A stretch of 64,000 nucleotides of DNA from Gammaproteobacteria bacterium (GCA_022072255.1 JAJVHZ010000011.1:39540-103539), one strand, 5' to 3'; shown: positions 985 to 62,664, counted from the first letter of the stretch. Numbers and translations are program-made. The notes: generated by a model not told the origin, from the sequence alone.

Positions 985-3423
985 TCACGCCCTGACGCGC
1001 TCCATGGCCGGGTCGTAGAGCGGGCGCAGATGCACCCGGGCCGGCACCCGCACCGTGGCGACCTCGAGCTCGTAATCGCCCGTCTCGAGGTAGTCGCGAT
1101 CGACGCCGCCGGGATTGCGTACGTACCCGTAGCCGATGCTGGCGTTCACGGTATGGCCGAACCCGCCGCTGGTCAGCCAGCCCACGCGTTCGCCGTTGCG
1201 GTATATGGTCTCGCGCCCGAGCAGGACGACTTCCGGATCGTCGACCGTGAAGCATGCCAGAGCCTTCGCGAGCGGGCGCTGCCGCTGCCCGACCAGCGCC
1301 TCGCGCCCCAGGAACGGAACGTCCGCGCCGAGCTTCACCGCCCACCCCAGGCCCGCCTCCAGCGGCGTGTTGCCGGGCGTGATATCCGTGCCCCAGGCCC
1401 GGTAGCCCTTCTCCAGGCGCAGGCTCTCGATCGCGCGATACCCGCAGTTGGCGATGCCGTGCGGGCGCCCCGCGGCCATCAGCGCCTCGTAGAGGCTCAG
1501 CGCGAATTCCACGGGGACGTGCAGCTCCCATCCCAGCTCGCCGACGTAGGTCACGCGCAGGGCGGTGACCGGCGCGCCCGCGACCTGCAGCGACCGGGTC
1601 GTGGCGAACGGGAAGGCCGCGTTCGCGAGGTCCTCCTCGCACAGCGCGGCGAGCACCGCGCGCGCGCGCGGCCCGAACAGCGAGAGCACGGCATGCGCCG
1701 AGGTGACGTCGACGAGTTCGGCGTGGGCGCCGGCGGGGATGTTGCGGCGGATCCACTCGAAGTCATGGGTGGCAAAGCCGGTACCGGTCACGATGTAGAA
1801 CCGATCGGCGGCGAGCCGCGCCACGGTCAGGTCGCACTCGATGCCGCCGCGGCTGTTCAGCATCTGCGTATAGGTCAGCGAGCCGGGGGCCCTGGCGACG
1901 TCGTTGGCGCATATCCAGGTGAGGCACGATTCGGCATCGCGGCCGATCAGCAGGAACTTCGCGAACGAGGACTGATCGAAAAGGCCCACGCGTTCGCGCA
2001 CCGCGCGGTGTTCCTCGCCCACGGCGGCGAACCAGTTCTGCCGGCCGAAGCCGTAGGCGTCCTCCGGGGCCTGGCCCGTGGGGGCGAACCAGTTCGGCCG
2101 CTCCCAGCCCAGCTTCTCGCCGAAGCAGGCGCCCGCGTCCTTCAGCCGATCGTAGAGCGGCGAACGCCGCAGCGGCCGCCCGCTGCGATGCTCCTCGTGC
2201 GGCCAGGCCACCGTGTAATGCTTGCCGTACATCTCGAGCGTGCGCTGGCGCAGCCAGCCGCTGTCGCCGTGCGGGCGTCCGAAGCGACGGATATCCACGG
2301 GCCAGAGGTCGTAGGGCGCCTCGCCCCCGGCGATCCACTCGGCGAGCGCCTTGCCGGCGCCGCCCGCCGAGGCGATACCGAAGGCGTTGAAGCCGGCGGC
2401 GACATAGTAGTTCCGAAGCTCCGGCGCCTCACCGAGTATGAAGTTGCCGTCGGGCGTGAAACTCTCCGCGCCGTTCACCAGCTTCTTGATGCCGGCGTTT
2501 TCCAGCGCCGGCACCCGGCCGACAGCCAGGTCCGTCAGCTGCTGGAAGTGCGCCCAGTCCGGCTCCAGGAGCCGGAACGCGCGCGCCGGCCCCTTGCCCG
2601 GGTCATGAGGGATGGGGTCGGGCTCGTAGCCGCCCATCACCAGGCCGCCGACCTCCTCCTTGTAGTAGGTCAGGCGGTCGGGATCGCGCAGTGTGGGCAA
2701 TGTCGGGGTCACGCCGTCGATCGGGTCGGTGATCAGGTACTGATGCTGCACCGAAACCAGCGGGACGTTGACGCCGGCGAGCCGGCCGAATTCCCGCGCC
2801 CACTGGCCGCAGCAATTGACCAGCACCTCGCAGGCGATCCGGCCCATGGAGGTCGCCACCGCGGCGACCCGCCCGTCCACGGTCTCCACGCCCGTCACCC
2901 TGCATCCCTCGATGATCGTCACGCCGCCCCGGCGCGCGCCGATCGCCAGCGCCTGCGTGATGTCCGCCGGGTTCGCCTGTCCATCGGTGGGGAGAAACGC
3001 CGCGCCGACCACATCGTCGATCTCCATCAGCGGCCACAGCGCCTTCGCCTCCGCCGGCGTCAGCAGATCCATCTGCAGGCCGAAGCTCCTGGCGGTCGTC
3101 GCCTGCCGGCGGAGTTCCGTCATGCGCGCCTCGGTGCACGCCAGGCGCAGCCCCCCGTTCATCTTCCAGCCGGTCGCCTGGCCGGTCTCCGCCTCCAGGG
3201 TCTGGTAGAGCGTCACCGAATGTCCGAGCAGCTGCGTGATGCTGGCGGACGTCCGCAGTTGTCCGACCAGGCCGGCGGCGTGAAAGCTGGTTCCGCCCGC
3301 GAGCTTCAGCCGTTCCAGCAGCACGACGTCCTTCCAGCCGAGCCTTGCCAGGTTGTAGGCCACGGAGCAGCCGATGATGCCTCCGCCGACGATGACAACG
3401 CGTGTACTGCCGGGTAGCGTCAT
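985..3423 (-). CDS. Dimethylglycine/sarcosine dehydrogenase family protein (FAD oxidoreductase N-terminal domain fused to GcvT-like aminomethyltransferase C-terminal domain)
   Basis: 812 aa. N-terminal FAD dinucleotide-binding motif VVIVGGGIIGCSVAY. C-terminal folate-binding GcvT-like region. Sits next to etfAB, its expected electron acceptor. Confidence 0.8.
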   Translation of the reverse strand: MTLPGSTRVVIVGGGIIGCSVAYNLARLGWKDVVLLERLKLAGGTSFHAAGLVGQLRTSASITQLLGHSVTLYQTLEAETGQATGWKMNGGLRLACTEARMTELRRQATTARSFGLQMDLLTPAEAKALWPLMEIDDVVGAAFLPTDGQANPADITQALAIGARRGGVTIIEGCRVTGVETVDGRVAAVATSMGRIACEVLVNCCGQWAREFGRLAGVNVPLVSVQHQYLITDPIDGVTPTLPTLRDPDRLTYYKEEVGGLVMGGYEPDPIPHDPGKGPARAFRLLEPDWAHFQQLTDLAVGRVPALENAGIKKLVNGAESFTPDGNFILGEAPELRNYYVAAGFNAFGIASAGGAGKALAEWIAGGEAPYDLWPVDIRRFGRPHGDSGWLRQRTLEMYGKHYTVAWPHEEHRSGRPLRRSPLYDRLKDAGACFGEKLGWERPNWFAPTGQAPEDAYGFGRQNWFAAVGEEHRAVRERVGLFDQSSFAKFLLIGRDAESCLTWICANDVARAPGSLTYTQMLNSRGGIECDLTVARLAADRFYIVTGTGFATHDFEWIRRNIPAGAHAELVDVTSAHAVLSLFGPRARAVLAALCEEDLANAAFPFATTRSLQVAGAPVTALRVTYVGELGWELHVPVEFALSLYEALMAAGRPHGIANCGYRAIESLRLEKGYRAWGTDITPGNTPLEAGLGWAVKLGADVPFLGREALVGQRQRPLAKALACFTVDDPEVVLLGRETIYRNGERVGWLTSGGFGHTVNASIGYGYVRNPGGVDRDYLETGDYELEVATVRVPARVHLRPLYDPAMERVRA

Positions 3424-3438
3424 GGTCTGCGTCCGCCT

Positions 3439-4326
3439 CTATGGTCTTCCGAACCGCTGTTGAAACTCCGCCCAGGCACGCTCGAACCGCTGCAGGTTCT
3501 CGGTCGTGTAGGCGACGTAGTCGAAATCGATGGTCGAGAAGATCTCCGAGACCATGCTCCACATGCTCTCGCGCAACAGCGAGGCGCACTTCATCGCCGC
3601 GTAGCGCCGGCGCAGATCCTCGCTCGGCGCCTTCTCGAAGTACGCCTCCAGCAGCCACTCGTCCTGCTCCGGGGCGAGCGCGTTGTTGGAGGCCAGGCCG
3701 CCGAGATCGAACAGCGGGCTGTTGAAGCCGCCGTAGTCCCAGTCGACCAGCCACAGCCTGGCGCCGTCGTCGATGAAGTTGGCGGCGAGCAGATCGTTGT
3801 GGCCGAACACGATGGTGACCGGGCCCACGGCGCCCTCGAGCTGCCCGGCGAGCCGGGCGAGGCGCGGCAGCTCCGGGACCATGCGGCTGTTGTGCTCCCG
3901 CAGCGTCATGGCGTAGTCGCGCAGCACCTGGAACACCCAGAACATGGCCGCCGGACCGCGGAAGTATTTCGGGATGTCCCGATGGCAGCGTTGAATCGCC
4001 GGGACGATCCGACGCAGCATGGCGTCCTGGCGCACCATCTCCGGCGTGAGCGTCGTGCCCTCGATGTAGCGCATGACGAGCGCTCCGGCCTCCGCGTGCA
4101 CGATCTCCGGCGATATCCCCGCCGCGCACGCCGCCCGCGCGGCGGCGAGCTCGTTGGCGCGCGACACGCCGTGCACCGGCATGTCGTCTCCGATGCGGAC
4201 CACGAAGCGCTCGCCGCCGTGCTCGACCAGGAAATTGGTGTTGGTGATCCCGCCGGCGAGCGGCACCGGATTGACGGGCGAGCGCCAGCAGCCCAGTCGC
4301 ATCGCTCTCTGTCTGGCGCGGTCCAT
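3439..4326 (-). CDS. Choline/ethanolamine kinase family protein (aminoglycoside phosphotransferase fold)
   Basis: GGITNTNFLVE nucleotide-binding loop, HNDLLAANF (Brenner motif) and DWDYGGFN motifs, typical of LicA-like choline kinases. Confidence 0.65.
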   Translation of the reverse strand: MDRARQRAMRLGCWRSPVNPVPLAGGITNTNFLVEHGGERFVVRIGDDMPVHGVSRANELAAARAACAAGISPEIVHAEAGALVMRYIEGTTLTPEMVRQDAMLRRIVPAIQRCHRDIPKYFRGPAAMFWVFQVLRDYAMTLREHNSRMVPELPRLARLAGQLEGAVGPVTIVFGHNDLLAANFIDDGARLWLVDWDYGGFNSPLFDLGGLASNNALAPEQDEWLLEAYFEKAPSEDLRRRYAAMKCASLLRESMWSMVSEIFSTIDFDYVAYTTENLQRFERAWAEFQQRFGRP

Positions 4327-4335
4327 GGCGGCGGG

Positions 4336-6348
4336 CTACGCGATGCCGAGCCGGTGTTTGCGCGCCGCGACCCATGGCTGGATCAGGCGGTCGGCGATGA
4401 TCGCCATGAAGGCGATGCAGACGCCGGCGACGACGCCGCGGCCGACGTCGGCCTTGGCAAGCGCGATGTAGACCTCCTGCCCGAGTTCGCGTGTCCCGAC
4501 CAGCGCCGTGATCACGAGCATGCTGAGCGCCATCAGGATCGTCTGGTTCACCCCGAGCATGATCTCCGGAAACGCCAGGGGCAGCTGGACCTTCCACAGC
4601 AGTTGTCTGCGCGTGCAGCCTGAAGCGACGGCCGCCTCGACGAGCGTCGGGTCGATCTGCCGGATGCCGAAGATGGTGTAGCGGACGGGGAAGACGATGG
4701 CGTAGGCGATCACCGCCAGCATCGCGGTGAAATCTCCGACGCGAAACAGCATCACCACGGGCATCAGGTAGGCGAAAGCGGGCAGGGTCTGCAGCGTATC
4801 GATGATCACCTGCACCACGCGGTTGAGCCGCTCGTGCCGGGCGGCGAGTATGCCGACGGGGATCCCGAGGGCGCAGGCGAGCAGCGTCGCCAGTCCGCAG
4901 AGATAGAGGGTCTGCATCGCCTTCTCCCACTGCCCGGTCACGGCGATGAACCCTGCCAGCGCGGCCACGAGCAGCGCGAGCCTCCACCGTCCCAGGCGCC
5001 AGCCCGCGTATGCCAGGGCGGCGACCACCGCGGCCCACGGCAGCGCGACGAACAGGCGCTTGATCGGCACCATGAAATTGAGCAGCACCCAGGCCTTCAG
5101 CGCCTCGATGAGGTCGAAGAAGTTGACGTTCAGCCACTTCATCGTCTCGTTGATGAGCGGGCCGGTGGTGACCTGAAGCTCCTCGGGATACTGTTGCACG
5201 GCCGGAATCAGCCAGCCGAGCAGCCAGCTCGCCGCGACCACCGCGGTGGCGGCGAGGAGATGCGGGTGGCGGCGCCATCGCGGGCGGGACTCGCCCGGCG
5301 ACTGCGCCGAGGGCGGTCGGGCCGCGTAGGCCTGGCTCAGCCGATCCAGCGCGATCGCGAGCAGCGTGATGGCGATACTCGCCTCCAGCCCGGCGCCGAA
5401 GTTCAGACTGCGCAGCGCGGTCAGCACGTCGCGCCCCAGTCCCCCCGCTCCGATCATCGAGGCGATGATGACCATGTTGAGCGACAGCATGATGACCTGG
5501 TTCACGCCGATCATCAGTCCGCCGCGCGCGGCCGGGACCATGACCCGCCAGGTCAGCTGCCCGCGCGAGCAGCCGGCCATGCGCCCGAATTCGACGATCT
5601 CGGTCGGCACGCGGCGCAGCGCGAGGGTGGTGTTGCGCACCATCGGCGGCAGCGCATAGATGATGGTCGCAATCATCGCCGCCACCGGGTTGAAGCCGAA
5701 CAGCACGAGGATCGGCACGAGGTAGGCGAACACGGGCACCGTCTGCATCAGGTCCATGATCGGCGTGATGGCGCGCTCGAACATCGGGTGCCGGAAGGCA
5801 AGTATTCCGAGCAGGAGCCCGCCGGCCACGCCGAGCGGCACGGCGATGACGATCGACGACAGCGTGATCATGGCGCTGTGCCACTGCCCGAACACGGCGA
5901 TGTAAAGGAAGCAGCCGCACACCAGCAGCCCCAGCCGCCAGTCGCGGGCGTAGAGGGACATCACCGTGACCACGCCGATCGCGCCCACCCACGACAGCGG
6001 CGGCCAGATGAGCACGGCCTGCTGGCCCATGCCGCGCACGAAACCGCCGGAGAGCAGGCTCTTGGCGGCCTCCAGCGGCCACTGCAGCACCCAGGAGATC
6101 GCGCGCGTCAGCTCCTGGAAGGTGAACAGGCCCAGGCTGGCGTCCTCGTACAGCCACTTCACGAAGCGGCTCACCCAGGCCTGCGCGGGCAGGGTCCACT
6201 CCTCGGGGAACGTCACCGCCCAGGGAGCCGCGGCGCGGCCGAGGTACAGGCATACCGCGAGCACCGCGATGGTCGCCCAGGCCCACGGCACGGCCGAGCG
6301 CGGCGTCGCCGTGTCCACTCGTACCGCCGCGGCGGTGCCGGCGGTCAC
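4336..6348 (-). CDS. proW: Glycine betaine/proline-type ABC transporter permease, tandem-duplicated (two ProW-like domains)
   Basis: 670 aa with two repeated permease modules carrying ABC TMD EAA-like loops. Its ATG overlaps the proV stop (ATGA). Confidence 0.75.
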   Translation of the reverse strand: MTAGTAAAVRVDTATPRSAVPWAWATIAVLAVCLYLGRAAAPWAVTFPEEWTLPAQAWVSRFVKWLYEDASLGLFTFQELTRAISWVLQWPLEAAKSLLSGGFVRGMGQQAVLIWPPLSWVGAIGVVTVMSLYARDWRLGLLVCGCFLYIAVFGQWHSAMITLSSIVIAVPLGVAGGLLLGILAFRHPMFERAITPIMDLMQTVPVFAYLVPILVLFGFNPVAAMIATIIYALPPMVRNTTLALRRVPTEIVEFGRMAGCSRGQLTWRVMVPAARGGLMIGVNQVIMLSLNMVIIASMIGAGGLGRDVLTALRSLNFGAGLEASIAITLLAIALDRLSQAYAARPPSAQSPGESRPRWRRHPHLLAATAVVAASWLLGWLIPAVQQYPEELQVTTGPLINETMKWLNVNFFDLIEALKAWVLLNFMVPIKRLFVALPWAAVVAALAYAGWRLGRWRLALLVAALAGFIAVTGQWEKAMQTLYLCGLATLLACALGIPVGILAARHERLNRVVQVIIDTLQTLPAFAYLMPVVMLFRVGDFTAMLAVIAYAIVFPVRYTIFGIRQIDPTLVEAAVASGCTRRQLLWKVQLPLAFPEIMLGVNQTILMALSMLVITALVGTRELGQEVYIALAKADVGRGVVAGVCIAFMAIIADRLIQPWVAARKHRLGIA

Positions 6349-7430
6349 TTCGGCCGTTCCTGGCCGCCGTCCTGCCGGACGAGCAGGTCGATCACCTGCT
6401 GGCGATCGATCATCCCGACTATCGCGGAGCTGCCGTCGACCACGGCATGAGGCTGCGGGCTCTCGACGATCTGTCTGGCCACTGACGCGACCCGCGCCTC
6501 CGCCCGCACCTGCCCGGCATACTCCACCCGCTCGTCGGGCGCGCGCATCAGCGCCCTTACGCTCAGCACCTTCGCCCGCGGGATGTCGCGCGTGAACTCG
6601 GATACGTACGCGGTCGCGGGATGCGTGATCAGCTGCTCGGGCGTGCCGATCTGGATGATCTCGCCGTCCTTCATGATCGCGATGCGATCGGCGAGCCGGA
6701 TGGCCTCGTCGAAGTCGTGGGTGATGAATGCGATGGTCTTCTTCAGGACGCTCTGGATCCGCAGGAATTCATCCTGCATCTCCCGGCGGATGAGCGGATC
6801 CAGGGCGGAGAAGGGCTCGTCCAGGAACCAGATATCCGGTTTCACCGCCAGCGAACGCGCGATCCCGACGCGCTGCTGCTGCCCGCCGGAGAGCTCGCGC
6901 GGATAGCAGGATTCCCGGCCCTTCAATCCCACCAGCTCGATCATCTCGCGCGCCCGCGCCTCGCGCGCCTGCCGCTCCACGCCCTGCACCTCCAGCGGGA
7001 AGGCGACGTTGCCGAGGACGGTCAGGTGCGGCAGCAGCGCAAAGTTCTGGAACACCATCCCCATCTTGTGGCGCCGGATCTCGATCAGCTCGGTCTCGGT
7101 CGCCTTCAGCAGATCCCGGCCGTCAAACAGGACCTGGCCGGCCGAGGGCTCCACCAGCCGGGACAGGCAACGCACCAGCGTGGACTTGCCGGACCCCGAC
7201 AGGCCCATGATGACGAAGATCTCGCCCTCGTGGATGGCAAACTCGACGTTGCGGACCGCCGCGATCAGGCCCGCCCCGTGCAGGTCGGCCGCCGACGGCG
7301 TGCCCGGGAGCATCGCCTGGAAGCGATCGGCGCTCGTTCCGAAGACCTTCCAGAGTCCGCGGCACGCGAGCTTGACGGCGCGCGTGCCGCGCACCGGGTG
7401 GTCCGCGTCACGGGAAGCGGGATCGGCCAT
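6345..7430 (-). CDS. proV: Glycine betaine/proline ABC transporter ATP-binding protein with C-terminal CBS domains
   Basis: Walker A GLSGSGKST, signature LSGGQQQRV and Walker B FLDEPFSALD. The C-terminal extension is typical of ProV/OpuAA. Confidence 0.85.
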   Translation of the reverse strand: MADPASRDADHPVRGTRAVKLACRGLWKVFGTSADRFQAMLPGTPSAADLHGAGLIAAVRNVEFAIHEGEIFVIMGLSGSGKSTLVRCLSRLVEPSAGQVLFDGRDLLKATETELIEIRRHKMGMVFQNFALLPHLTVLGNVAFPLEVQGVERQAREARAREMIELVGLKGRESCYPRELSGGQQQRVGIARSLAVKPDIWFLDEPFSALDPLIRREMQDEFLRIQSVLKKTIAFITHDFDEAIRLADRIAIMKDGEIIQIGTPEQLITHPATAYVSEFTRDIPRAKVLSVRALMRAPDERVEYAGQVRAEARVASVARQIVESPQPHAVVDGSSAIVGMIDRQQVIDLLVRQDGGQERPK

Positions 7431-7515
7431 GGCTCCTGCGGATCACTCCCAGGGGACTCGCCGGACCGCGGGGGGGACGCCCCGCGATCCGTCGCTCACC
7501 GGCAGTCGCTCCGAT

Positions 7516-8466
7516 CTATTGCGTCCACGCCTTCCACGTCGCCTCGTTATTCTTCATCCACTCCGCGACGACGTCCTCGAGCTTGGCGCCCTCGAGATCG
7601 ATCTTGGCTATCAGTTCGCCCATCGTCTTGTTGTCGATCCGGAAGTTGCGCACCGCGGCGTACGCCTTGGGCCACTTCTCCTCTCCGCCCTTCCAGCCGA
7701 CCTTCTTGATCCAGCCGTGCGGCTTGCCGCAGTCATGGGTCTTCTTGGGATTGATGCCCCAGGCCGGATCGGTGTAACAGGCGTCCTCGTACTCGGGAAA
7801 CGCCACCCATTCGCCCTCGTACTTGATGGGCGCCCAGTGCGGCGTGTAGATCCAGAGCAGGATCGGGGCCTGGCGCTGGTAGGCCGACTCCAGCTCCGCG
7901 AACATCGCCGCGTCGGTGCCGGCATGCACGACCTCGAAGGGCAGTTCCAGCGCCTCGACACGCTCCTCGTCGAAGCCGCCCCAGGTGACCGGGCCGCCGA
8001 GATAACGACCCTTCGGCGCGGTCTCGGGGGTGGCGAAGGCCTCCCCACACTGCTTCAGCGCCTCCCAGTTCGGCAGCCCCGGACACTTCTCCTTCATGTA
8101 GGCGGGGAACCACCATTCCTCCTTCGCCTCCATGCCCGTCTCGCCGAGGTCGATCGTCTTTCCCGTGGCGAGCGAGGCGTCCATCGCCTCCTTGCCCGTG
8201 GTCTGCCAGATCTCCATGGCGACCGCCAGGTCCCCGGTCTCCAGACCGGCGAACTGCGCGAGGTAGTCGGCCTGCACGTACTCCACGTTGTAGCCCATCG
8301 ACTTCAGCACCTCACCCATGATGTGGGTGGTGACGTACTGGCCGGTCCAGTCGTGTATGGTCAGCTTGATGGGGTCCTGAGACTCGGCGGCTGGTGCACT
8401 GCCACAGAGCCCCCACGTCAGCCCCAGCAACATGCTGCCGATCAGTCTGCGCCGCTGTGTTTTCAT
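7516..8466 (-). CDS. proX: Glycine betaine-binding periplasmic protein (ProX-like substrate-binding protein)
   Basis: The track ORF runs to 8748, but a signal-peptide start MKTQRRRLIGSMLLGL lies at 8466, preceded by AGGAGG. Trp-rich binding-cage residues fit the ProX family. Confidence 0.75.
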   Translation of the reverse strand: MKTQRRRLIGSMLLGLTWGLCGSAPAAESQDPIKLTIHDWTGQYVTTHIMGEVLKSMGYNVEYVQADYLAQFAGLETGDLAVAMEIWQTTGKEAMDASLATGKTIDLGETGMEAKEEWWFPAYMKEKCPGLPNWEALKQCGEAFATPETAPKGRYLGGPVTWGGFDEERVEALELPFEVVHAGTDAAMFAELESAYQRQAPILLWIYTPHWAPIKYEGEWVAFPEYEDACYTDPAWGINPKKTHDCGKPHGWIKKVGWKGGEEKWPKAYAAVRNFRIDNKTMGELIAKIDLEGAKLEDVVAEWMKNNEATWKAWTQ

Positions 8467-8746
8467 CGGACATGCCTCCTCTGTTGGTTCGTGTAACCTC
8501 GGAACTGCCCGCAAGAACAGCATAGCCCCGCCTGAAGACCGCAGGATGAGGATCATTGCGGCGCGATGGTCGTGCGCGATTTTTCCAAGGGGCCTTCCCG
8601 CGCCATCTTCCTCCTCATCCCACATACAGTCAATGAATCCCACATGAAGCGGGCACGTTTTGTTGCTTTGTGTGGGATTCGAAACTAAGCTCACGCAATT
8701 CAACTGGTCGGGCCGATCGACGGCCACCGAACAGGCGATCGCAGAC

Positions 8747-9505
8747 ATGTTCCCGACACGACGGGAGTCCGAGATACTTCAGGCCGTGCGCCTGCAGGGC
8801 TCCTGCAGCATCGGCGAGCTCGCGGCGCGCTTCGGCGTGTCGGAGGAAACGATCCGCCGCACCGTCAAGCCACTCGTCAGCAGCGGCCTGGTCAGGAGGG
8901 TCCACGGCGGCATCGTGCTGCCGGATCGGTTGAACGAGCCGCCTTTCCAGCGGCGGATGCAGGAGAATCGCGAAGCCAAGCAACGGATTGCCGCGGCCGT
9001 GGCCGCGCGGATCAAGGACGGGGACTCTCTCATGCTGGATACCGGATCGACCACCGCCTATACCGCCCTCGCGCTCGCCAACCACTCCAATCTCGTCATC
9101 ATCACGAACTCGGTGGAGATTGCGCGGATGCTCGCCAGCCGCAACGGCAACCGCGTCTGCATGGCCGGCGGCGAGCTGCGTGCCGATGATGGCGCCGCCT
9201 TCGGGCAGGCGGCCCAGGATTTCGTCCGGCGCTTCCATGTCGACTACGCGATTCTCTCCATCGGCGCGATAAACGAGGCCGGCGTGTTCATGGACTATCA
9301 TCTCTGCGAGGGCGAGTTCTCGCGCGCCGTCATCGAGCAGGCCAGCGAGGTCATCGTGGTGGCGGATCGGTCCAAGTTCGGCACGCGCGCCCCGGTCAAG
9401 GTCTGCGACGCCGAGGCCGTCGATCTGCTCGTCACCGACGGCGCCATTCCGCGCAGGCTGATGCGGAGATTCGTGCAGTCCAATACGCGGGTGGTAGCGG
9501 CCTGA
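8747..9505 (+). CDS. DeoR/GlpR family transcriptional regulator
   Basis: N-terminal HTH (RESEILQAVRLQGSCSIGELAARFGVSEETIRR) plus a DeoR C-terminal sugar-phosphate-binding-like domain. Divergent from the proXVW operon. Start taken at MFPTRRE (8747). Confidence 0.75.
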   Translation: MFPTRRESEILQAVRLQGSCSIGELAARFGVSEETIRRTVKPLVSSGLVRRVHGGIVLPDRLNEPPFQRRMQENREAKQRIAAAVAARIKDGDSLMLDTGSTTAYTALALANHSNLVIITNSVEIARMLASRNGNRVCMAGGELRADDGAAFGQAAQDFVRRFHVDYAILSIGAINEAGVFMDYHLCEGEFSRAVIEQASEVIVVADRSKFGTRAPVKVCDAEAVDLLVTDGAIPRRLMRRFVQSNTRVVAA

Positions 9506-9565
9506 GGCCGCGCCCGCATCGGCGACCGTCAATCGTTCAGGCAGCCACTTGCCCCGCTCGCCCTG

Positions 9566-9593
9566 TTGACATAGTTAGCTACCTAACTATAAT
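9566..9593 (+). promoter_or_regulatory. Near-consensus sigma-70 promoter (TTGACA-N16-TATAAT) with an inverted-repeat operator (TAGTTAG-N5-CTAACTA) in the spacer
   Basis: TTGACA at 9566-9571 and TATAAT at 9588-9593. The spacer tagttagctacctaac contains TAGTTA/TAACTA inverted arms. Lies immediately upstream of the MarR gene. Confidence 0.6.
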
Positions 9594-9600
9594 GGGCGCC

Positions 9601-10104
9601 ATGCTGCAGCTCAAAGACCTACCCGACGCCCTGATACTCGGCAAATTCGCCGACCGCTACGGGGCGGTGGATGTCGATGCGGTGCTCCAGTTCCTGAGCA
9701 TCCTTCGCATCGGGACCGATCTTTCCGAGGCCCTGGACGGCTTTCTGGCCAGACGCGGCCTGCTTCAGGGCCGCTGGTGGGTGCTGATCCTGCTCATGCG
9801 CGAGGATGACCTGACCTCGACACCGTCGGAGCTGGCGGAAAAATCCGGCGTCAGCCGGGCCACCATGACCCGGCTGATCGACGGGCTGGCGCGCGACGGC
9901 CTGGTGAAACGCCTGGGCGACCGCAGCGACCGCAGGAAGTACTCCATCAGGCTGACCGCGGCCGGGCAGGCCAGGCTGGACGAGGTGATGCCCGAATACT
10001 ACCCGCGCGTGAAGCGCATGATGAAAGTCCTGTCCGCAGCGCAGCGCGAACAGCTATTGCAGAACCTGCTGCTGCTCAAGGAGCGCAGCAAGGTATTCCA
10101 GTGA
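9601..10104 (+). CDS. MarR family transcriptional regulator
   Basis: Winged-helix region TPSELAEKSGVSRATMTRLIDGLARDGLVKRLGDRSDRR. Start is ambiguous: the track's 9592 overlaps the -10 box, so 9601 is used and the mRNA may be leaderless. Confidence 0.75.
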   Translation: MLQLKDLPDALILGKFADRYGAVDVDAVLQFLSILRIGTDLSEALDGFLARRGLLQGRWWVLILLMREDDLTSTPSELAEKSGVSRATMTRLIDGLARDGLVKRLGDRSDRRKYSIRLTAAGQARLDEVMPEYYPRVKRMMKVLSAAQREQLLQNLLLLKERSKVFQ

Positions 10105-10111
10105 TATTTTT

Positions 10112-10140
10112 TTGCCGATTTAGTTAGCTACCTAAGTATT
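10112..10140 (+). promoter_or_regulatory. Second copy of the MarR-type operator (TAGTTAGCTACCTAAGTA) within a putative promoter of the downstream SnoaL-like gene
   Basis: A near-identical 18-mer (17 of 18 positions match) to the site at 9572-9589. TTGCCG lies 17 nt upstream of AGTATT. Positioned 50 nt upstream of the ATG at 10191. Confidence 0.5.
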
Positions 10141-10190
10141 TTTCGTACAAGACTACAGAGACCATTCCCAACCTTGCCCAAGGAGTCATC

Positions 10191-10646
10191 ATGAACAAGT
10201 TCTTTGCAACCGCCCTCACCGCAACCCTGGCCCTGGGTCCCACCCATGCCGCCCATGCCGGCGACGATACGCGCGCCATCGTCGAGGCCGCCAACGCGGC
10301 GTGGAACCAGGCCCTGAACAGCGGCAACCCGCAGGCCCTGGCCGCTCTATACACGGAAGACGCCATCCTGTCGCCGGGAAACGGCAAGGCGCTGGTCGGA
10401 CGCGCGGAGATCGAAGCGCTGTTCCGCGGCTTCGTCGAGGCCGGTGTGCACAACCACACCCTGGAAATCATCGAAGTGGGCGGCACCGACACGCTGATCT
10501 ACCAGGTGGCCCGCTGGAGCGCGCAGGGCGCCGCCACCGCCGATGGCAAGACTCCCAGCTTCGGCGGAGTCACCACCAGCGTGCTGGAAGAGGGCCAGGA
10601 TGGAGCGTGGCGCGCGCGCAGCCACGTATGGAACGCCGTTCAATAG
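10191..10646 (+). CDS. Secreted SnoaL-like/DUF4440 (NTF2-fold) protein
   Basis: Signal peptide MNKFFATALTATLALGPTHAAHA, then an NTF2-like domain (AIVEAANAAWNQALNSGNPQALAALYTEDAIL). AGGAG ribosome-binding site. Confidence 0.6.
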   Translation: MNKFFATALTATLALGPTHAAHAGDDTRAIVEAANAAWNQALNSGNPQALAALYTEDAILSPGNGKALVGRAEIEALFRGFVEAGVHNHTLEIIEVGGTDTLIYQVARWSAQGAATADGKTPSFGGVTTSVLEEGQDGAWRARSHVWNAVQ

Positions 10647-10985
10647 CCGCCCGAGCAAGGCCGACGCACGCGGCACCTGCATGCGGCTGCATATCGCCGG
10701 CAGGTCATCTGCGCAAGGATGCGCGGATGCGCGCGTGCGGCCACGCACCGTAATCGCCGTCTCTGTCGCGCCCGGCTGGTCTTCGGCCAGCAGGGCGCGG
10801 CGGGCGCTTCCACGCCATCTCCGGGGATGAGGTACATAGAGGGCTCGCGCCGGTCAGGACCATCCTCTGGAGCAGCGCGGCATGGTGCCGGACAGCGCGC
10901 AAGGACGTGTCGGCAAAATGGACATCGCGTGCCCGCAGACTAGACTTTGCGATATTCATTCATCGGTCCGGACGGCGGATGCGGC

Positions 10986-11405
10986 ATGGCCATGCTGTCA
11001 ACACCGCGAATCCTGCGTCGCGAGGCAGCGCGACTGAGGCCTCTGGTCGTGTCTGCAATTGCCCTGTTCGCCCTCGCCTCGGACATCGAGGCCCAACAGC
11101 GCGCCGTCATCGTCAATGGCGAACTTCTCGATGACGAGGGCCTGACGCTGATTGACCAGCTGAATTGCGGGCAACCGGTTGGCGACGGAATATATGCGTT
11201 GGATCTCGGGTCGCGAACCTGGGGCTACGCCGACAGTGAGGAGCGCCAGGCGCTGCCCGATTGCGAGGCGGTGGCGCCCGTCGGCGAGGACGAGGTTGTG
11301 GAGGCGCCGGGATCTGAGGAGCCCGCCACGGCCGACGATTGCGAAAGCCGCTATGAGTACTTCGAGGACCGGATGATGTACTGCTACGGCGTCAGCCCCC
11401 CCTGA
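10986..11405 (+). CDS. Hypothetical small secreted protein with four Cys and an acidic C-terminus
   Basis: Coding-like GC3 bias. Predicted signal peptide (LRPLVVSAIALFALASD). No recognisable family. Ends 30 nt upstream of the next gene. Confidence 0.4.
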   Translation: MAMLSTPRILRREAARLRPLVVSAIALFALASDIEAQQRAVIVNGELLDDEGLTLIDQLNCGQPVGDGIYALDLGSRTWGYADSEERQALPDCEAVAPVGEDEVVEAPGSEEPATADDCESRYEYFEDRMMYCYGVSPP

Positions 11406-11435
11406 GGGGACTTACGCCGCGAGGGGGGGTACTCG

Positions 11436-13034
11436 ATGTCGAGGCTGCCAGGCCAGATCTGGATGATCCTCATTGCGGCCGGCGTCCTGTCGCTGATTGC
11501 CTCACTGCTGATCGGCTATCTGTATCGTCGCGCGCTGATCCGCCACATGGGCGGCAGGGCGTCGGATGTGTCGGAAGCGGCCGCGCCACCGGCGGCGATC
11601 GCCGACCGGCGCATGGCCGGCACCCTCGCCGGACGCTACCCCACCGGTTCCGAGAACCGCGCGGCCCAGCGCCGCCTCACGTGGTACATCCTGGCCTTGA
11701 CCGCGTTGGTTGCAGTGTCGGCGGCGGCCCTGCAGTGGCTGCTGCTCTTCGATGTCGAGCTGACGCCCCGGCGGCTGCTGGTCCAATCCGCCGCCTACTT
11801 CTGGATGGCGCTGCCCGCATTGGCCGTGGCCTGGCGGTGGCGGCGCCGGACCCTGATTGCCGCTCTCGCCGTCTATTACGTCCTGTTCGTGGGATTCGGG
11901 ATGAGCCAGTCGACCGAGGCCCAGCAGCTGTCCACCGTCATGAAGCACGGCGCCTTCGCCATCGGCATGCCCATGGTGATAGTGATGCTTTTCGGCCTCG
12001 GCGGCGTGACGCGCGCCATCGGCAGCTGGCTGCTGCCGATCTTCATCCTGCTCGCGGCGGCATCGACGGCGGGCGCCGAGTTTCTCTTCCAGCTGATGGA
12101 GACGTCACCGCGCCTCGTCGAAGGGGCGCTGCAATACCTGAGTGCCGAGGCGGTGATCGCGGGTGCCGTCCTCACCCCGTGGATGCTCGCGATCCTCCCG
12201 GTCGTGTGGCTCTCGCGCCTCGTCGACGGGCTCTACCGGCGCAAGCTGTTCTCGGAGCTGGCCTGGCTGATGACCTCCTTCTGGTTCGTCTGCCTGACGC
12301 TCGAAGTCGCCAGCGGCATGCACGGCGCAGGATTCCATGCACTCTGGATGTATCTGCCGATGCTGTGGTTGCCCGTCACCTTCTACGCGCTGCGCCGTGC
12401 GATGGCGCCGCGGTCGCGGCCGCCCATGCTGCTGGTGTTGCGCGTGTTCCAGCGCGATCGGGAGATGGAGGCGCTGTTCGACGCCGTCATCGAGCGCTGG
12501 CGGGTGACCGGCAACGTGGCGCTCATCGCCGGCACCGATCTGGTCTCGCGCACGATCGACCCGGGCGAGATCTTCGCCTTCCTCGGCGGCCGCATCGACA
12601 GGCAGTTCATCGCCTCCGTCGAGGGCATCCCGGGACGCCTCGCCGCGTTCGACCTGCAGCCGGACATCGAGGGCCGCTACCGCATCAACGAGTGCTATTG
12701 CCGCGACACCACCTGGAAGCCGACGCTCGCTGCCCTGGTCGAGATGAGCGACGTGGTCCTGACGGATCTGCGGCGTTTTCAGGCGCACAACGAGGGCTGT
12801 CGCTACGAGCTCGGGATACTCGCGCGCGCGCGAAACATCGCCCGGGTGGTCGTGCTGTTCGACGGCAAGACCGATCGTGCAGTCGCCGCGCAGGACACGG
12901 CCGGCGCGCCGGCCACGCGTTTCCACTGGATGGACGTGACGTCGCGTGGCAGAGCCGGATGGCGGGAGGCATTGCAGGCCCTGTTCGTCGAACTCCCGGA
13001 CGCGGGCGGGCGGACGGCGCGTCGCGCCGCCTGA
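11436..13034 (+). CDS. Hypothetical polytopic membrane protein (about 8 TM helices) with an about 200-aa cytoplasmic C-terminal alpha/beta domain of unknown function
   Basis: 532 aa. Hydrophobic N-terminal two-thirds rich in Trp. C-terminal region has alternating hydrophobic beta-strand-like segments (LLVLRVF, VALIAGTD, VVLTDLR, RVVVLFDGKTD). No confident family assignment. Confidence 0.55.
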   Translation: MSRLPGQIWMILIAAGVLSLIASLLIGYLYRRALIRHMGGRASDVSEAAAPPAAIADRRMAGTLAGRYPTGSENRAAQRRLTWYILALTALVAVSAAALQWLLLFDVELTPRRLLVQSAAYFWMALPALAVAWRWRRRTLIAALAVYYVLFVGFGMSQSTEAQQLSTVMKHGAFAIGMPMVIVMLFGLGGVTRAIGSWLLPIFILLAAASTAGAEFLFQLMETSPRLVEGALQYLSAEAVIAGAVLTPWMLAILPVVWLSRLVDGLYRRKLFSELAWLMTSFWFVCLTLEVASGMHGAGFHALWMYLPMLWLPVTFYALRRAMAPRSRPPMLLVLRVFQRDREMEALFDAVIERWRVTGNVALIAGTDLVSRTIDPGEIFAFLGGRIDRQFIASVEGIPGRLAAFDLQPDIEGRYRINECYCRDTTWKPTLAALVEMSDVVLTDLRRFQAHNEGCRYELGILARARNIARVVVLFDGKTDRAVAAQDTAGAPATRFHWMDVTSRGRAGWREALQALFVELPDAGGRTARRAA

Positions 13035-13101
13035 AGCGGATGCGCATCTGGCGAGCGACCATCTGCAGCGCGCGGCGAGCCGAACTCAGGGCACGGTGCT
13101 G

Positions 13102-59778: not shown

Positions 59779-62664
59779 ATGCAATCCATCAGCGATAAGG
59801 ATCTCGGTACACCGCCGTCGGAGTCGACGAAACAGGTCACGCTGGATATCGACGGATTCAGGGTCACGGTTCCGGAAGGCACCACGGTCATGCGTGCCGC
59901 CGCGACGATCGGCATCGGCGTGCCCAAACTCTGTGCCACCGACATGCTGGTACCGTTCGGATCCTGCCGACTTTGCCTTGTGGAGATCGAGGGTATGCGC
60001 GGCTACCCGGCCTCGTGCACGACGCCGGTTGCCGAAGGCATGAGAGTGACGACTCAGAACCAGAAGCTCGGCGACCTGCGTCGGGGGGTCATGGAGCTCT
60101 ACATTTCGGATCATCCGCTCGACTGCCTTACCTGTCCGGCCAACGGTCATTGCGATCTGCAGGACATGGCCGGCGTCGTCGGCCTGCGCGAAGTGCGATA
60201 CGGATACGACGGCGCCAATCACGTCTGCGCGCAGACCTGCGACGGAAAGGCGAATCCGATGTTTGCCGCCAAGGACGAGAGCAATCCGTATTTCACCTTC
60301 GATCCGAGCAGATGCATCGTCTGCTCCCGCTGCGTGCGCGCGTGCGACGACGTGCAAGGCACCTTCGCGCTGACGATCCAGGGCCGCGGCTTCGAGTCGA
60401 AGGTCTCCCCCAGCCAGAACCAGGACTTCCTGGACTCCGAGTGCGTCTCCTGCGGCGCCTGCGTGCAGGCCTGCCCGACCGCCGCGCTCAGCGAGAAGTC
60501 GCTCATCGCGATGGGGCAGGCCGACCACAGCATCGTCACGACCTGCGCGTACTGTGGAGTTGGCTGCTCGTTCAAGGCCGAAATGAAAGGCAGTGAGGTC
60601 GTTCGAATGGTGCCAAACAAGGACGGGCACGCCAACCATGGGCATTCCTGCGTCAAGGGCCGCTTCGCCTTCGGGTACGCCACGCACAAGGATCGCATCA
60701 CCACGCCGATGATCCGTGCCCGGATCACCGACCCATGGCGGGAGGTGTCGTGGGAGGAGGCGATCGGCCATGCCGCCGCCGAGTTCAAGCGCATACGGGG
60801 GACCTATGGACGCGGGTCGATCGGCGGAATCACCTCCTCGCGCTGCACCAACGAGGAGACATATCTCGTGCAAAAGCTCGTGCGCGCGGCATTCGGCAAC
60901 AACAATGTCGATACCTGCGCCCGCGTCTGCCATTCCCCGACCGGCTATGGCCTGAAGCAGACCCTCGGCGAGTCCGCCGGAACCCAGACCTTCGATTCGG
61001 TCATGAAGACGGACGTCATCATGGTCATCGGTGCCAATCCCACGGACGGGCACCCGGTATTCGCCTCGCGCATGAAGCAGCGCCTGCGCGAGGGCGCGAG
61101 GCTCATCGTCGTCGATCCGCGTACGATAGGACTCGTCAAGGCCCCGCATCTTGCCGCCGATTACCATCTGAAACTCAGGCCGGGCACCAACGTGGCGCTC
61201 GTCACGGCGATGGCGCACGTGATCGTGACCGAAGGCCTGTGCCGCGAGGATTTCATCGAGGCGCGCTGCGAGATCGACTCCTACCGCAAGTGGAAAACCT
61301 TCGTCGCCGAGCCCCGTCATTCGCCGGAGGCGACGGCATCCGTCACTGGAGTACCGGCGGAACTGGTGCGCGGCGCCGCGCGGCTGTTCGCCACTGGCGG
61401 CAACGCCGCCATTTATTACGGACTCGGGGTCACGGAACACAGCCAGGGTTCGACCATGGTGATCGGCATCGCCAATCTCGCGATGTGCACGGGCAACATC
61501 GGGCGCGACGGCGTCGGTGTGAACCCGCTGCGCGGCCAGAACAACGTCCAGGGCTCGTGCGACATGGGCTCGTTCCCGCACGAGTTTCCCGGCTACCGCC
61601 ACGTCTCCGACGAGTCCGTTCGCGCGCTGTTCGAGACGGCCTGGGGCACGACGCTCGAGGATGAGCCTGGCCTGCGCATACCCAACATGTTCGAGGCCGC
61701 GCTGGACGGCAGCTTCAAGGGGCTTTACATACAGGGCGAGGACATCGCCCAGTCCGATCCGGACACCCAGCACGTGCATGCCGCACTCAAGGCCATGGAT
61801 TGCGTCGTGGTGCAGGATCTGTTTCTCAACGAGACGGCGATGTTCGCGCACGTGTTCCTGCCCGGGTCGTCTTTCCTCGAGAAGAACGGAACGTTCACCA
61901 ACGCGGAGCGGCGCATCTCCCCGGTCCGACGCGTGATGCCGCCGCTCGCGGGCAAGGAGGACTGGGAGGTCACGGTGATGCTGTCCAATGCGCTCGGCTA
62001 TCCGATGAACTACGCGCACCCGTCGGAGATCATGGACGAGATCGCCGCGCTGACGCCCACCTTCGAGGGCGTGAGCTTCGCGAGGCTCGAGGAACTCGGC
62101 AGCATCCAGTGGCCGTGCGATGACAGCCATCCCCGGGGCACGCCGATCATGCACGTGGGCGAATTCGTTCGCGGCAAGGGCCGGTTCATGCTCAGCGAGT
62201 ACGTGCCCAGCCACGAACGCACCACCGGCCGCTTCCCGCTCGTCCTCACCACCGGCCGCATCCTCTCGCAGTACAACGTCGGCGCCCAGACCCGCCGCAC
62301 GCCGAATTCGCTGTGGCATTCCGAGGATCGCCTGGAGATCCACCCGCATGATGCGGAGGTGCGCGGCGTCCGCGACGGCGACTGGGTCGGGATCCAGAGC
62401 CGTGCAGGCGAGAGCGTCCTGCGTGCGACCATCACCGAGCGCGTACAGCCGGGTGTGGTCTATACCACCTTCCATTTCCCGGAATCCGGAGCCAACGTGA
62501 TCACCACCGACAACTCCGACTGGGCGACCAACTGTCCGGAATACAAGGTGACCGCGGTGCAGGTGACGAAGGTCTCCCAGCCTTCCGAATGGCAGCGCCG
62601 TCATCGCGCCTTCAGCGACCAGCAGAACCGGCTGCTCGAGGAGCGTCATGGCCTGCGCTCCTGA
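59779..62664 (+). CDS. fdsA: NAD-dependent formate dehydrogenase alpha subunit (molybdopterin, NuoG-like N-terminus)
   Basis: 961 aa. N-terminal 2Fe-2S and 4Fe-4S Cys clusters, then a MopB domain with the active-site Cys in the CAR(V)CHSP region (Cys-type, not Sec). Confidence 0.9.
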   Translation: MQSISDKDLGTPPSESTKQVTLDIDGFRVTVPEGTTVMRAAATIGIGVPKLCATDMLVPFGSCRLCLVEIEGMRGYPASCTTPVAEGMRVTTQNQKLGDLRRGVMELYISDHPLDCLTCPANGHCDLQDMAGVVGLREVRYGYDGANHVCAQTCDGKANPMFAAKDESNPYFTFDPSRCIVCSRCVRACDDVQGTFALTIQGRGFESKVSPSQNQDFLDSECVSCGACVQACPTAALSEKSLIAMGQADHSIVTTCAYCGVGCSFKAEMKGSEVVRMVPNKDGHANHGHSCVKGRFAFGYATHKDRITTPMIRARITDPWREVSWEEAIGHAAAEFKRIRGTYGRGSIGGITSSRCTNEETYLVQKLVRAAFGNNNVDTCARVCHSPTGYGLKQTLGESAGTQTFDSVMKTDVIMVIGANPTDGHPVFASRMKQRLREGARLIVVDPRTIGLVKAPHLAADYHLKLRPGTNVALVTAMAHVIVTEGLCREDFIEARCEIDSYRKWKTFVAEPRHSPEATASVTGVPAELVRGAARLFATGGNAAIYYGLGVTEHSQGSTMVIGIANLAMCTGNIGRDGVGVNPLRGQNNVQGSCDMGSFPHEFPGYRHVSDESVRALFETAWGTTLEDEPGLRIPNMFEAALDGSFKGLYIQGEDIAQSDPDTQHVHAALKAMDCVVVQDLFLNETAMFAHVFLPGSSFLEKNGTFTNAERRISPVRRVMPPLAGKEDWEVTVMLSNALGYPMNYAHPSEIMDEIAALTPTFEGVSFARLEELGSIQWPCDDSHPRGTPIMHVGEFVRGKGRFMLSEYVPSHERTTGRFPLVLTTGRILSQYNVGAQTRRTPNSLWHSEDRLEIHPHDAEVRGVRDGDWVGIQSRAGESVLRATITERVQPGVVYTTFHFPESGANVITTDNSDWATNCPEYKVTAVQVTKVSQPSEWQRRHRAFSDQQNRLLEERHGLRS

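Follow-up and report, generated by a model that had tools for sequence, protein, structure and literature searches.

The window, by which we mean the whole stretch of DNA analysed (64,000 nucleotides), contains a compact two-gene cassette in which both genes lie on the strand shown. The upstream gene encodes a YetL-like MarR repressor of 167 residues (9601–10104, with its stop codon at 10102–10104) and the downstream gene encodes a 151-residue DUF4440/SnoaL-like protein of the SgcJ/EcaC family (10191–10646). The marR gene is preceded by a promoter on the same strand whose −35 hexamer TTGACA (9566–9571) and −10 hexamer TATAAT (9588–9593) match the consensus at 12 of 12 positions, the sole full-consensus site in a promoter scan of 9300–10900. 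The 16-nt spacer between the hexamers is occupied by an 18-bp inverted repeat of the GTTAG-N4-CTAAC type, operator O1 (TAGTTAGCTACCTAACTA, 9572–9589), whose last two bases are also the first two of the −10 box. The arms of O1 are 7 bp long (TAGTTAG/CTAACTA) and flank a CTAC centre, with 16 of the 18 positions self-complementary.

A second copy of the repeat, operator O2 (TAGTTAGCTACCTAAGTA, 10121–10138), lies in the marR–snoaL intergenic region, 16 nt past the marR stop codon and 52 nt before the ATG of the SnoaL-like gene at 10191. It differs from O1 by a single mismatch, C to G at 10136. Allowing up to three mismatches, we found no further copies of the 18-mer in the 64-kb window beyond O1 and O2; shuffled sequence gave 0.00. 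An earlier note on this DNA had described both repeats, one with inverted arms inside a TTGACA/TATAAT promoter with a 16-nt spacer and one upstream of the SnoaL-like gene. Both positions are exact and the promoter geometry is as described, the arms being in fact 7 bp in length. Upstream of O2, a run of seven T residues followed by TTGCCG (10107–10117, same strand) is conserved in close relatives and may be a weak −35/UP-like element. The SnoaL-like gene has a Shine–Dalgarno sequence on this strand, AAGGAG, at 10180–10185, which reads (a/g)aggag in two relatives (L001 and L002).

The regulator scores above the cutoffs of both relevant Pfam families: MarR (PF01047) at 44.3 bits versus 24.6, and MarR_2 (PF12802) at 44.2 versus 27. 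Its best match among solved structures is Bacillus subtilis YetL (PDB 7wze, E=4.8e-29), with residues 3–166 of the query aligned to 2–165 of the chain; the second-best PDB match has E=1.3e-11. Identity to YetL is 36% overall along the full length, rising to 63% around the recognition helix, and the similarity includes an N-terminal extension ahead of the usual first helix. YetL is a flavonoid-responsive repressor of yetL and yetM. These two genes are transcribed divergently in Bacillus, where YetL controls an FAD monooxygenase (FAD_binding_3); the window instead has a tandem pair with a DUF4440/SnoaL-like target. For this reason the regulator is classed, on homology, as a YetL-like MarR and not as a YetL orthologue. 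The targets of YetL are its own gene and a single adjacent enzyme gene (review PMC10458429), and the extra N-terminal helix of the protein is unusual among MarR structures (PMC11602129).

Other family assignments were tried and rejected. The name MprA/EmrR, carried by the public record P0001, corresponds to a model (NF008122) against which the protein scores 51.2 bits versus a cutoff of 157. A MepR orthologue would have been expected to resemble PDB 4l9n more closely than the E=0.0022 obtained, and the Escherichia coli MarR equivalog model gives 22.3 bits versus a cutoff of 240. Our literature search, which included methylotrophs, returned no paper on this orthogroup and no reports of binding, transcript ends or expression for the protein or its orthologues.

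The arms of the window repeat also occur next to yetM in Bacillus. The yetL–yetM intergenic region of a B. subtilis-group genome contains a perfect 18-bp palindrome, TAGTTAGGCGCCTAACTA, with the same TAGTTAG and CTAACTA arms. This sequence is reportedly the YetL operator at yetM described in 2009 by Hirooka and co-workers, and the yetL-side site is said in the same work to overlap the Shine–Dalgarno sequence and not the promoter spacer. A full-text literature search with the operator 18-mer gave no match. The yetL region of B. amyloliquefaciens (L083) contains no clean palindrome and was left out of the operator comparison.

A similar correspondence is found with MepR of Staphylococcus aureus, a repressor of mepR and mepA that responds to cationic drugs. 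MepR is distant from the window protein by the match quoted above and its target is a MATE efflux pump; mepA carries two abutting sites. The MepR operator consists of two GTTAG signatures spaced 4 bp apart in AT-rich surroundings. Such sites, which overlap promoter elements, are carried by the regulator gene as well as by the target gene (PMC3936728). The oligonucleotide used for the MepR–DNA structure, TATTTAGTTAGATATCTAACTAAATA, contains the same 18-bp frame as the window repeat (PMC3936728). Read in this frame, O1 becomes taGTTAGctacCTAACta, with inverted GTTAG signatures 4 bp apart and AT-rich flanks, which places the window repeat in an experimentally established class of MarR operators. 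The arrangement of sites is also familiar from E. coli MarR, whose dimer binds palindromes that overlap the −35 and −10 elements of its own operon promoter, with a second site downstream, and is relieved from repression by small phenolic ligands. The marO operator sequence is different, and marRAB has a leader and a Shine–Dalgarno sequence, unlike the gene in the window.

To place the locus in a comparative context, we scanned one genome per species and retained the 80 closest loci, in which the relatives are 54–88% identical. The conserved start could be placed in 76 of these, which carry the operator and promoter counts given below; an operator was called as TAGTTAG-N4-CTAACTA with at most two mismatches. 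O1 lies directly upstream of the orthologous gene and fills the promoter spacer in 69 of the 76 loci. Among these 69, 54 have TTGACA at all six −35 positions and 51 have TATAAT as the −10 hexamer. The TTAG/CTAA cores do not vary, unlike the 4-bp centre and the flanks; in this sequence comparison the conservation of the repeat is far beyond chance. The operator-in-promoter layout is therefore conserved in about 70 related bacteria, mostly users of methanol or methylamine, and constitutes an ordinary self-regulating switch. The proposal that the 18-mers are operators, made in the earlier note, gains support from this conservation, from the adjoining YetL-like MarR gene, from the half-sites of Bacillus yetL–yetM and from the MepR operator frame, and we treat both as predicted operators.

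About 64 of the 80 loci come from genomes named Methylophilaceae, Methylophaga/Methylophagaceae or Methyloversatilis. Species with an orthologue that exist in culture include Methylobacillus flagellatus (L074), Methylophaga lonarensis (L021), Methylotenera oryzisoli (L056) and Methylovorus mays (L050). Beyond the marR–SnoaL pair nothing is broadly conserved across the set, except that an EamA exporter gene accompanies the pair in 26 of the 80 loci and a tautomerase gene does so in 12; the remaining neighbours have housekeeping functions. One locus from an ‘Opitutia bacterium’ bin (L004) is 99.94% identical over 5191 nt to a contig from a Methylophilaceae bin (L005), and its ‘Opitutia’ assignment is probably a binning error in the public record. 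The Methylotenera bin MFD13448_ilm_asm_bin13 contains two paralogous marR–snoaL cassettes on separate contigs (L006 and L008), each with O1 and O2. Several Methylophilaceae loci (L005–L007) have two SnoaL paralogues in tandem, of which one is N-terminally extended by a possible signal peptide and the other is not.

The second operator is less widely distributed. An O2-type site with at most two mismatches is located 10–25 nt after the marR stop codon in 37 of the 76 loci; in loci that lack it, the marR stop codon abuts the Shine–Dalgarno sequence and ATG of the SnoaL gene, and the two genes form a tight operon under O1. Position 16, at which the two window sites differ, is T in 38 of 42 O2 sites versus C in 61 of 69 O1 sites, and is G in the window O2. 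This position is the first G of GTTAG, a base that MepR does not contact (PMC3936728). Within a genome, O1 and O2 change together in their 4-bp centres: both have CTAC in the window and CCAG in L011, and the O2 of L038 is O1 exactly reverse-complemented. The co-variation extends to L035–L037 and L059. This pattern suggests either concerted evolution of the two sites or a protein that selects the shape of the centre.

The marR promoter lies only a short distance from the conserved start codon. The conserved N-terminus begins MLQLKDLP, corresponding to ATG 9601 in the window; most homologues are 167 residues long, and residues that precede MLQL in longer annotations show no conservation. The start codon is ATG in 75 of the 76 orthologous loci. 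Seven nucleotides (GGGCGCC) separate TATAAT from ATG 9601, and transcription is therefore expected to begin at A 9601 or at C 9600. The corresponding gap is 5–11 nt in all 69 loci, with peaks at 6, 7 and 10 nt, which leaves no space for a Shine–Dalgarno sequence and implies an mRNA that is leaderless or nearly so. The window gene combines the features by which we recognised leaderless genes, namely a −10 box about 6–8 nt from the start codon, no Shine–Dalgarno sequence and an AUG start. Comparison across the orthologous loci strongly supports the prediction that marR mRNA is leaderless or has a 1-nt leader, and agrees with the earlier note in placing the probable start of translation at ATG 9601. 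For the 27 relatives with a 10-nt gap, a leader of 3–4 nt is implied, not zero. In these loci (e.g. L069, L073, L077, ~3990–4003) the gap reads G-N3-CTAAY(C/T) and forms, together with the start codon, CTAAYYA-TG, an extra element resembling a right half-site in which the last A is the A of the start codon; this element is absent from the window.

Leaderless mRNAs are thought to be rare in proteobacterial lineages. Repressor mRNAs that begin at or next to the AUG include lambda cI transcribed from PRM and Tn1721 tetR, whose proteins are unrelated to the window MarR. A precedent for a leaderless MarR gene is provided by crtR of Corynebacterium glutamicum, a MarR-type gene reported to be leaderless (PMC5401885). 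The crtR product belongs to a different MarR branch, and the leaderless state in the window is predicted from promoter geometry in 69 species, unlike in the cI, tetR and crtR precedents. Bacillus yetL also differs in this respect, having an ordinary GGGAG Shine–Dalgarno sequence.

The product of the downstream gene matches the Pfam families DUF4440 (46.6 bits versus a cutoff of 25.2) and SnoaL_2 as well as TIGR02246 (50.9 versus 33.95). Its nearest PDB match is 3hx8, annotated as a ‘putative ketosteroid isomerase’, and the nearest solved relatives are uncharacterised ‘ketosteroid isomerase-like’ proteins. Residues 1–23 resemble, by eye, a Sec signal peptide (MNKFFATALTATLALGPTHAAHA, followed by G), ending in AHA before the G. 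Orthologues of 126 residues align from residue 26, and many orthologues have no signal peptide. The window product is, judged from these features, a probable periplasmic NTF2-like protein.

A DUF4440/SnoaL gene is found directly downstream of marR in 69 of the 80 loci, and several natural rearrangements preserve its association with the operator. In L033 the SnoaL gene is inverted and detached from marR, and has its own promoter, TTGACA-a-TAGTTAGCCAGCTAACTA-AAAT, about 100 nt upstream. A metagenome scan for the operator together with a −10 box identified six contigs in which a SnoaL homologue lies behind TTGCAT-operator-TATAAT with no marR gene on the available contig DNA; a seventh contig (L190) is similar. 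These arrangements suggest that the SnoaL-like gene is a direct target of the repressor. The locus had been described as a self-contained autoregulated MarR circuit controlling one secreted effector gene. The pairing of the genes and the retention of operator-bearing promoters by unlinked SnoaL genes support the core of that description. The term ‘secreted effector’ is too strong for a probable periplasmic NTF2-like protein with many orthologues that lack a signal peptide, and ‘self-contained’ does not hold strictly among relatives, some of which add an EamA exporter or tautomerase gene.

The marR and SnoaL-like genes are probably a single operon with O2 as an internal operator. In the most economical model the O1 promoter gives rise to a single leaderless bicistronic mRNA, and O2 serves as a roadblock or pairs with O1. 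We found no terminator between the two genes and no significant RNA structure (fold z=0.21); the same transcript therefore most likely reads into the SnoaL-like gene. A less probable arrangement comprises two transcription units, with O2 embedded in a weak promoter of its own and the SnoaL-like gene transcribed and repressed independently. In this arrangement the T-run would be UP-like, TTGCCG would serve as the −35 element, and a poor −10 element would overlap the end of O2. Both the clade of the window and Methylophilaceae have kept the block of T-run and TTGSCS that precedes O2, so that a weak internal promoter is possible, and the unlinked SnoaL genes described above do carry operator-bearing promoters of their own. 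The best relaxed promoter match near O2 is TTGCCG-19-TATTTT, with 8 of 12 positions, but its 19-nt spacer is poor for sigma-70, and neither the window nor any of three diverse relatives has a sigma-70 promoter of at least 9/12 with a 16–18-nt spacer around O2. The lack of a terminator after marR also argues against separate units, as do some Methylophaga loci in which the Shine–Dalgarno sequence lies 5 nt past O2, leaving no space for a normal 5′ UTR.

Translation could in principle start at the in-frame ATG within the −10 box (9592–9594), a codon whose overlap with TATAAT the earlier note had pointed out. The transcript would then be a longer one that originates upstream of 9566, as might happen if transcription of the DeoR gene read through, and the promoter match would be incidental. 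This start gives the longest ORF, is used in one public annotation (P0001, 170 residues, identical to the window protein), and is compatible with the lack of any terminator found between the DeoR stop codon (9505) and 9566. The three additional residues are unconserved, however, and a 167-residue record (P0004) has the length of most homologues, which start MLQLKDLP. The promoter hexamers keep fixed positions in 69 loci despite differing upstream genes, and ATG 9592 has no Shine–Dalgarno sequence ahead of it because the bases there are the operator itself. We consider this start improbable, and ATG 9592 is probably unused. Less probable still is the idea that the 18-mers are direct repeats left by mobile or recombination-mediated insertion of marR and not protein-binding sites. 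The two copies do bracket marR, 11 nt before its start codon and 16 nt after its stop codon, as such repeats might. Their cores are invariant across species while the centre and flanks drift, as expected for the binding site of a dimer, and O2 is missing where the genes are joined in a tight operon. Single copies of the site stand before unlinked SnoaL genes, and related MarR proteins have been proven to use this motif as their operator. On this pattern of conservation we rejected a mobile-element origin of the repeats.

The reading that we prefer, and in whose complete stepwise form we have good confidence, takes the two genes for a stress-response cassette under the control of a YetL-like MarR repressor. 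What the sequences show is the anatomy of the locus, its conservation across species, the homology of the regulator to YetL, and half-sites identical to those of the Bacillus palindrome and of the experimentally defined MepR operator; the steps that follow are the model built on this. A repressor dimer would bind the GTTAG-N4-CTAAC palindrome O1 (9572–9589) and keep RNA polymerase off the consensus sigma-70 promoter, since O1 fills the spacer and overlaps the −10 box and bound repressor would thereby exclude the polymerase. On release of the repressor, transcription would start at the A of ATG 9601 or 1 nt earlier, giving a leaderless mRNA on which ribosomes would initiate marR translation without a Shine–Dalgarno sequence. 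The transcript would continue into the SnoaL-like gene, which has a normal Shine–Dalgarno sequence. Through O2 the repressor would hold the downstream gene at a further point, whether the site serves as a roadblock or pairs with O1; that a bacterial MarR can be a roadblock is something that we only infer. By analogy with YetL and MepR, a small ligand, probably aromatic or otherwise toxic, would free the repressor from both sites and so induce the regulator and the periplasmic NTF2-like protein together. The exporter and tautomerase genes present in relatives suggest a small-molecule detoxification response.

The genomic surroundings of the cassette are as follows. Upstream, positions 985–9505 hold a cluster for the catabolism of methylated amines that includes an 812-residue protein with DAO and GCV_T domains, of the dimethylglycine/sarcosine dehydrogenase type, a glycine-betaine-type ABC transporter (permease, ATPase and OpuAC binding protein) and a DeoR regulator. 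A formate-dehydrogenase-like gene with 2Fe-2S and molybdopterin domains is located at 59779–62664. The amine cluster and the formate-dehydrogenase-like gene fit a one-carbon lifestyle; aside from the latter, the remaining window consists of chromosomal housekeeping genes, among them dnaG, tsaD, rho, glnA and hemH. Comparison with syntenic relatives defines a conserved cassette block at 9555–10803. The adjacent 2.2 kb (10803–13040) are missing from the syntenic locus L002, where about 166 nt separate the flanking blocks, and contain ORFs without a Pfam match at 10947–11405 and at 11436–13034, the latter encoding a 532-residue membrane protein. L001 and L002 have about 350 extra nucleotides between the DeoR gene and the marR promoter.

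Related promoter–operator arrangements were observed in other MarR clades. A clade of shorter proteins (~135–143 residues, with the motifs PSHGDIL and RTKPTVT) from low-GC metagenomes, including those of the human gut, follows the same design as the window, with (C/A)TTGACAA-TAGTTAGAT(A/G)TCTAACTA-TAAT-N6-ATG. Examples are L145 (7799–7830), L088 (reverse strand), L086, L097, L119, L121, L129, L133 and L152, among others. Because only 6 nt lie between the −10 box and the start codon, these genes look leaderless as well. In a third clade, with proteins of 148 residues, the upstream region reads ATTGACAA-TAGTTAG(C/T)ACCCTAACTA-TAAT, followed by an operator-like copy, ATTTAGCATACTAACTAAT, and then by an AAGGAGG Shine–Dalgarno sequence (L084, L089, L091, L098, L113, L118, L141, L147, L158 and L171). 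Genes of this clade have tandem operators and are not leaderless. In the sequences compared, the promoter–operator module is common to different MarR branches.

A broader interpretation, which we regard as speculative, is that the cassette belongs to a methylotroph-linked regulon that detoxifies a metabolite of the one-carbon lifestyle or habitat, with O2 possibly a true roadblock. Such a regulon may comprise the leaderless YetL-like repressor, a periplasmic or cytoplasmic NTF2-like protein and sometimes an EamA exporter or tautomerase. The lineages that share the cassette are unrelated but have the one-carbon lifestyle in common (about 64 of the 80 loci), and the cassette could therefore sense a metabolite of that lifestyle or habitat; a quinone, an aldehyde adduct or a plant or algal phenolic could be the candidate. 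If O2 is a true roadblock, the cell could go on producing repressor with the enzyme gene still off.

The design described here is a known one: a YetL-like MarR, a known class of GTTAG operator and a classic operator-in-promoter arrangement, and current understanding stands. Three features are mildly notable: a leaderless layout that is deeply conserved in Proteobacteria, a strong link to methylotrophs, and a second operator in an internal position. The locus offers a clean, testable operator–repressor pair for a gene pair that is uncharacterised yet widespread among methylotrophs, and the analysis corrects both the start codon and the ‘MprA’ name in one public annotation. That about 70 species have kept the spacing of −10 box and ATG provides good evidence, of a comparative kind, that leaderless translation occurs in Proteobacteria. 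Finally, the GTTAG-N4-CTAAC operator code reaches Proteobacteria from the Firmicutes, where it serves YetL and MepR, and with this extension the regulons of this MarR branch become predictable by motif search.
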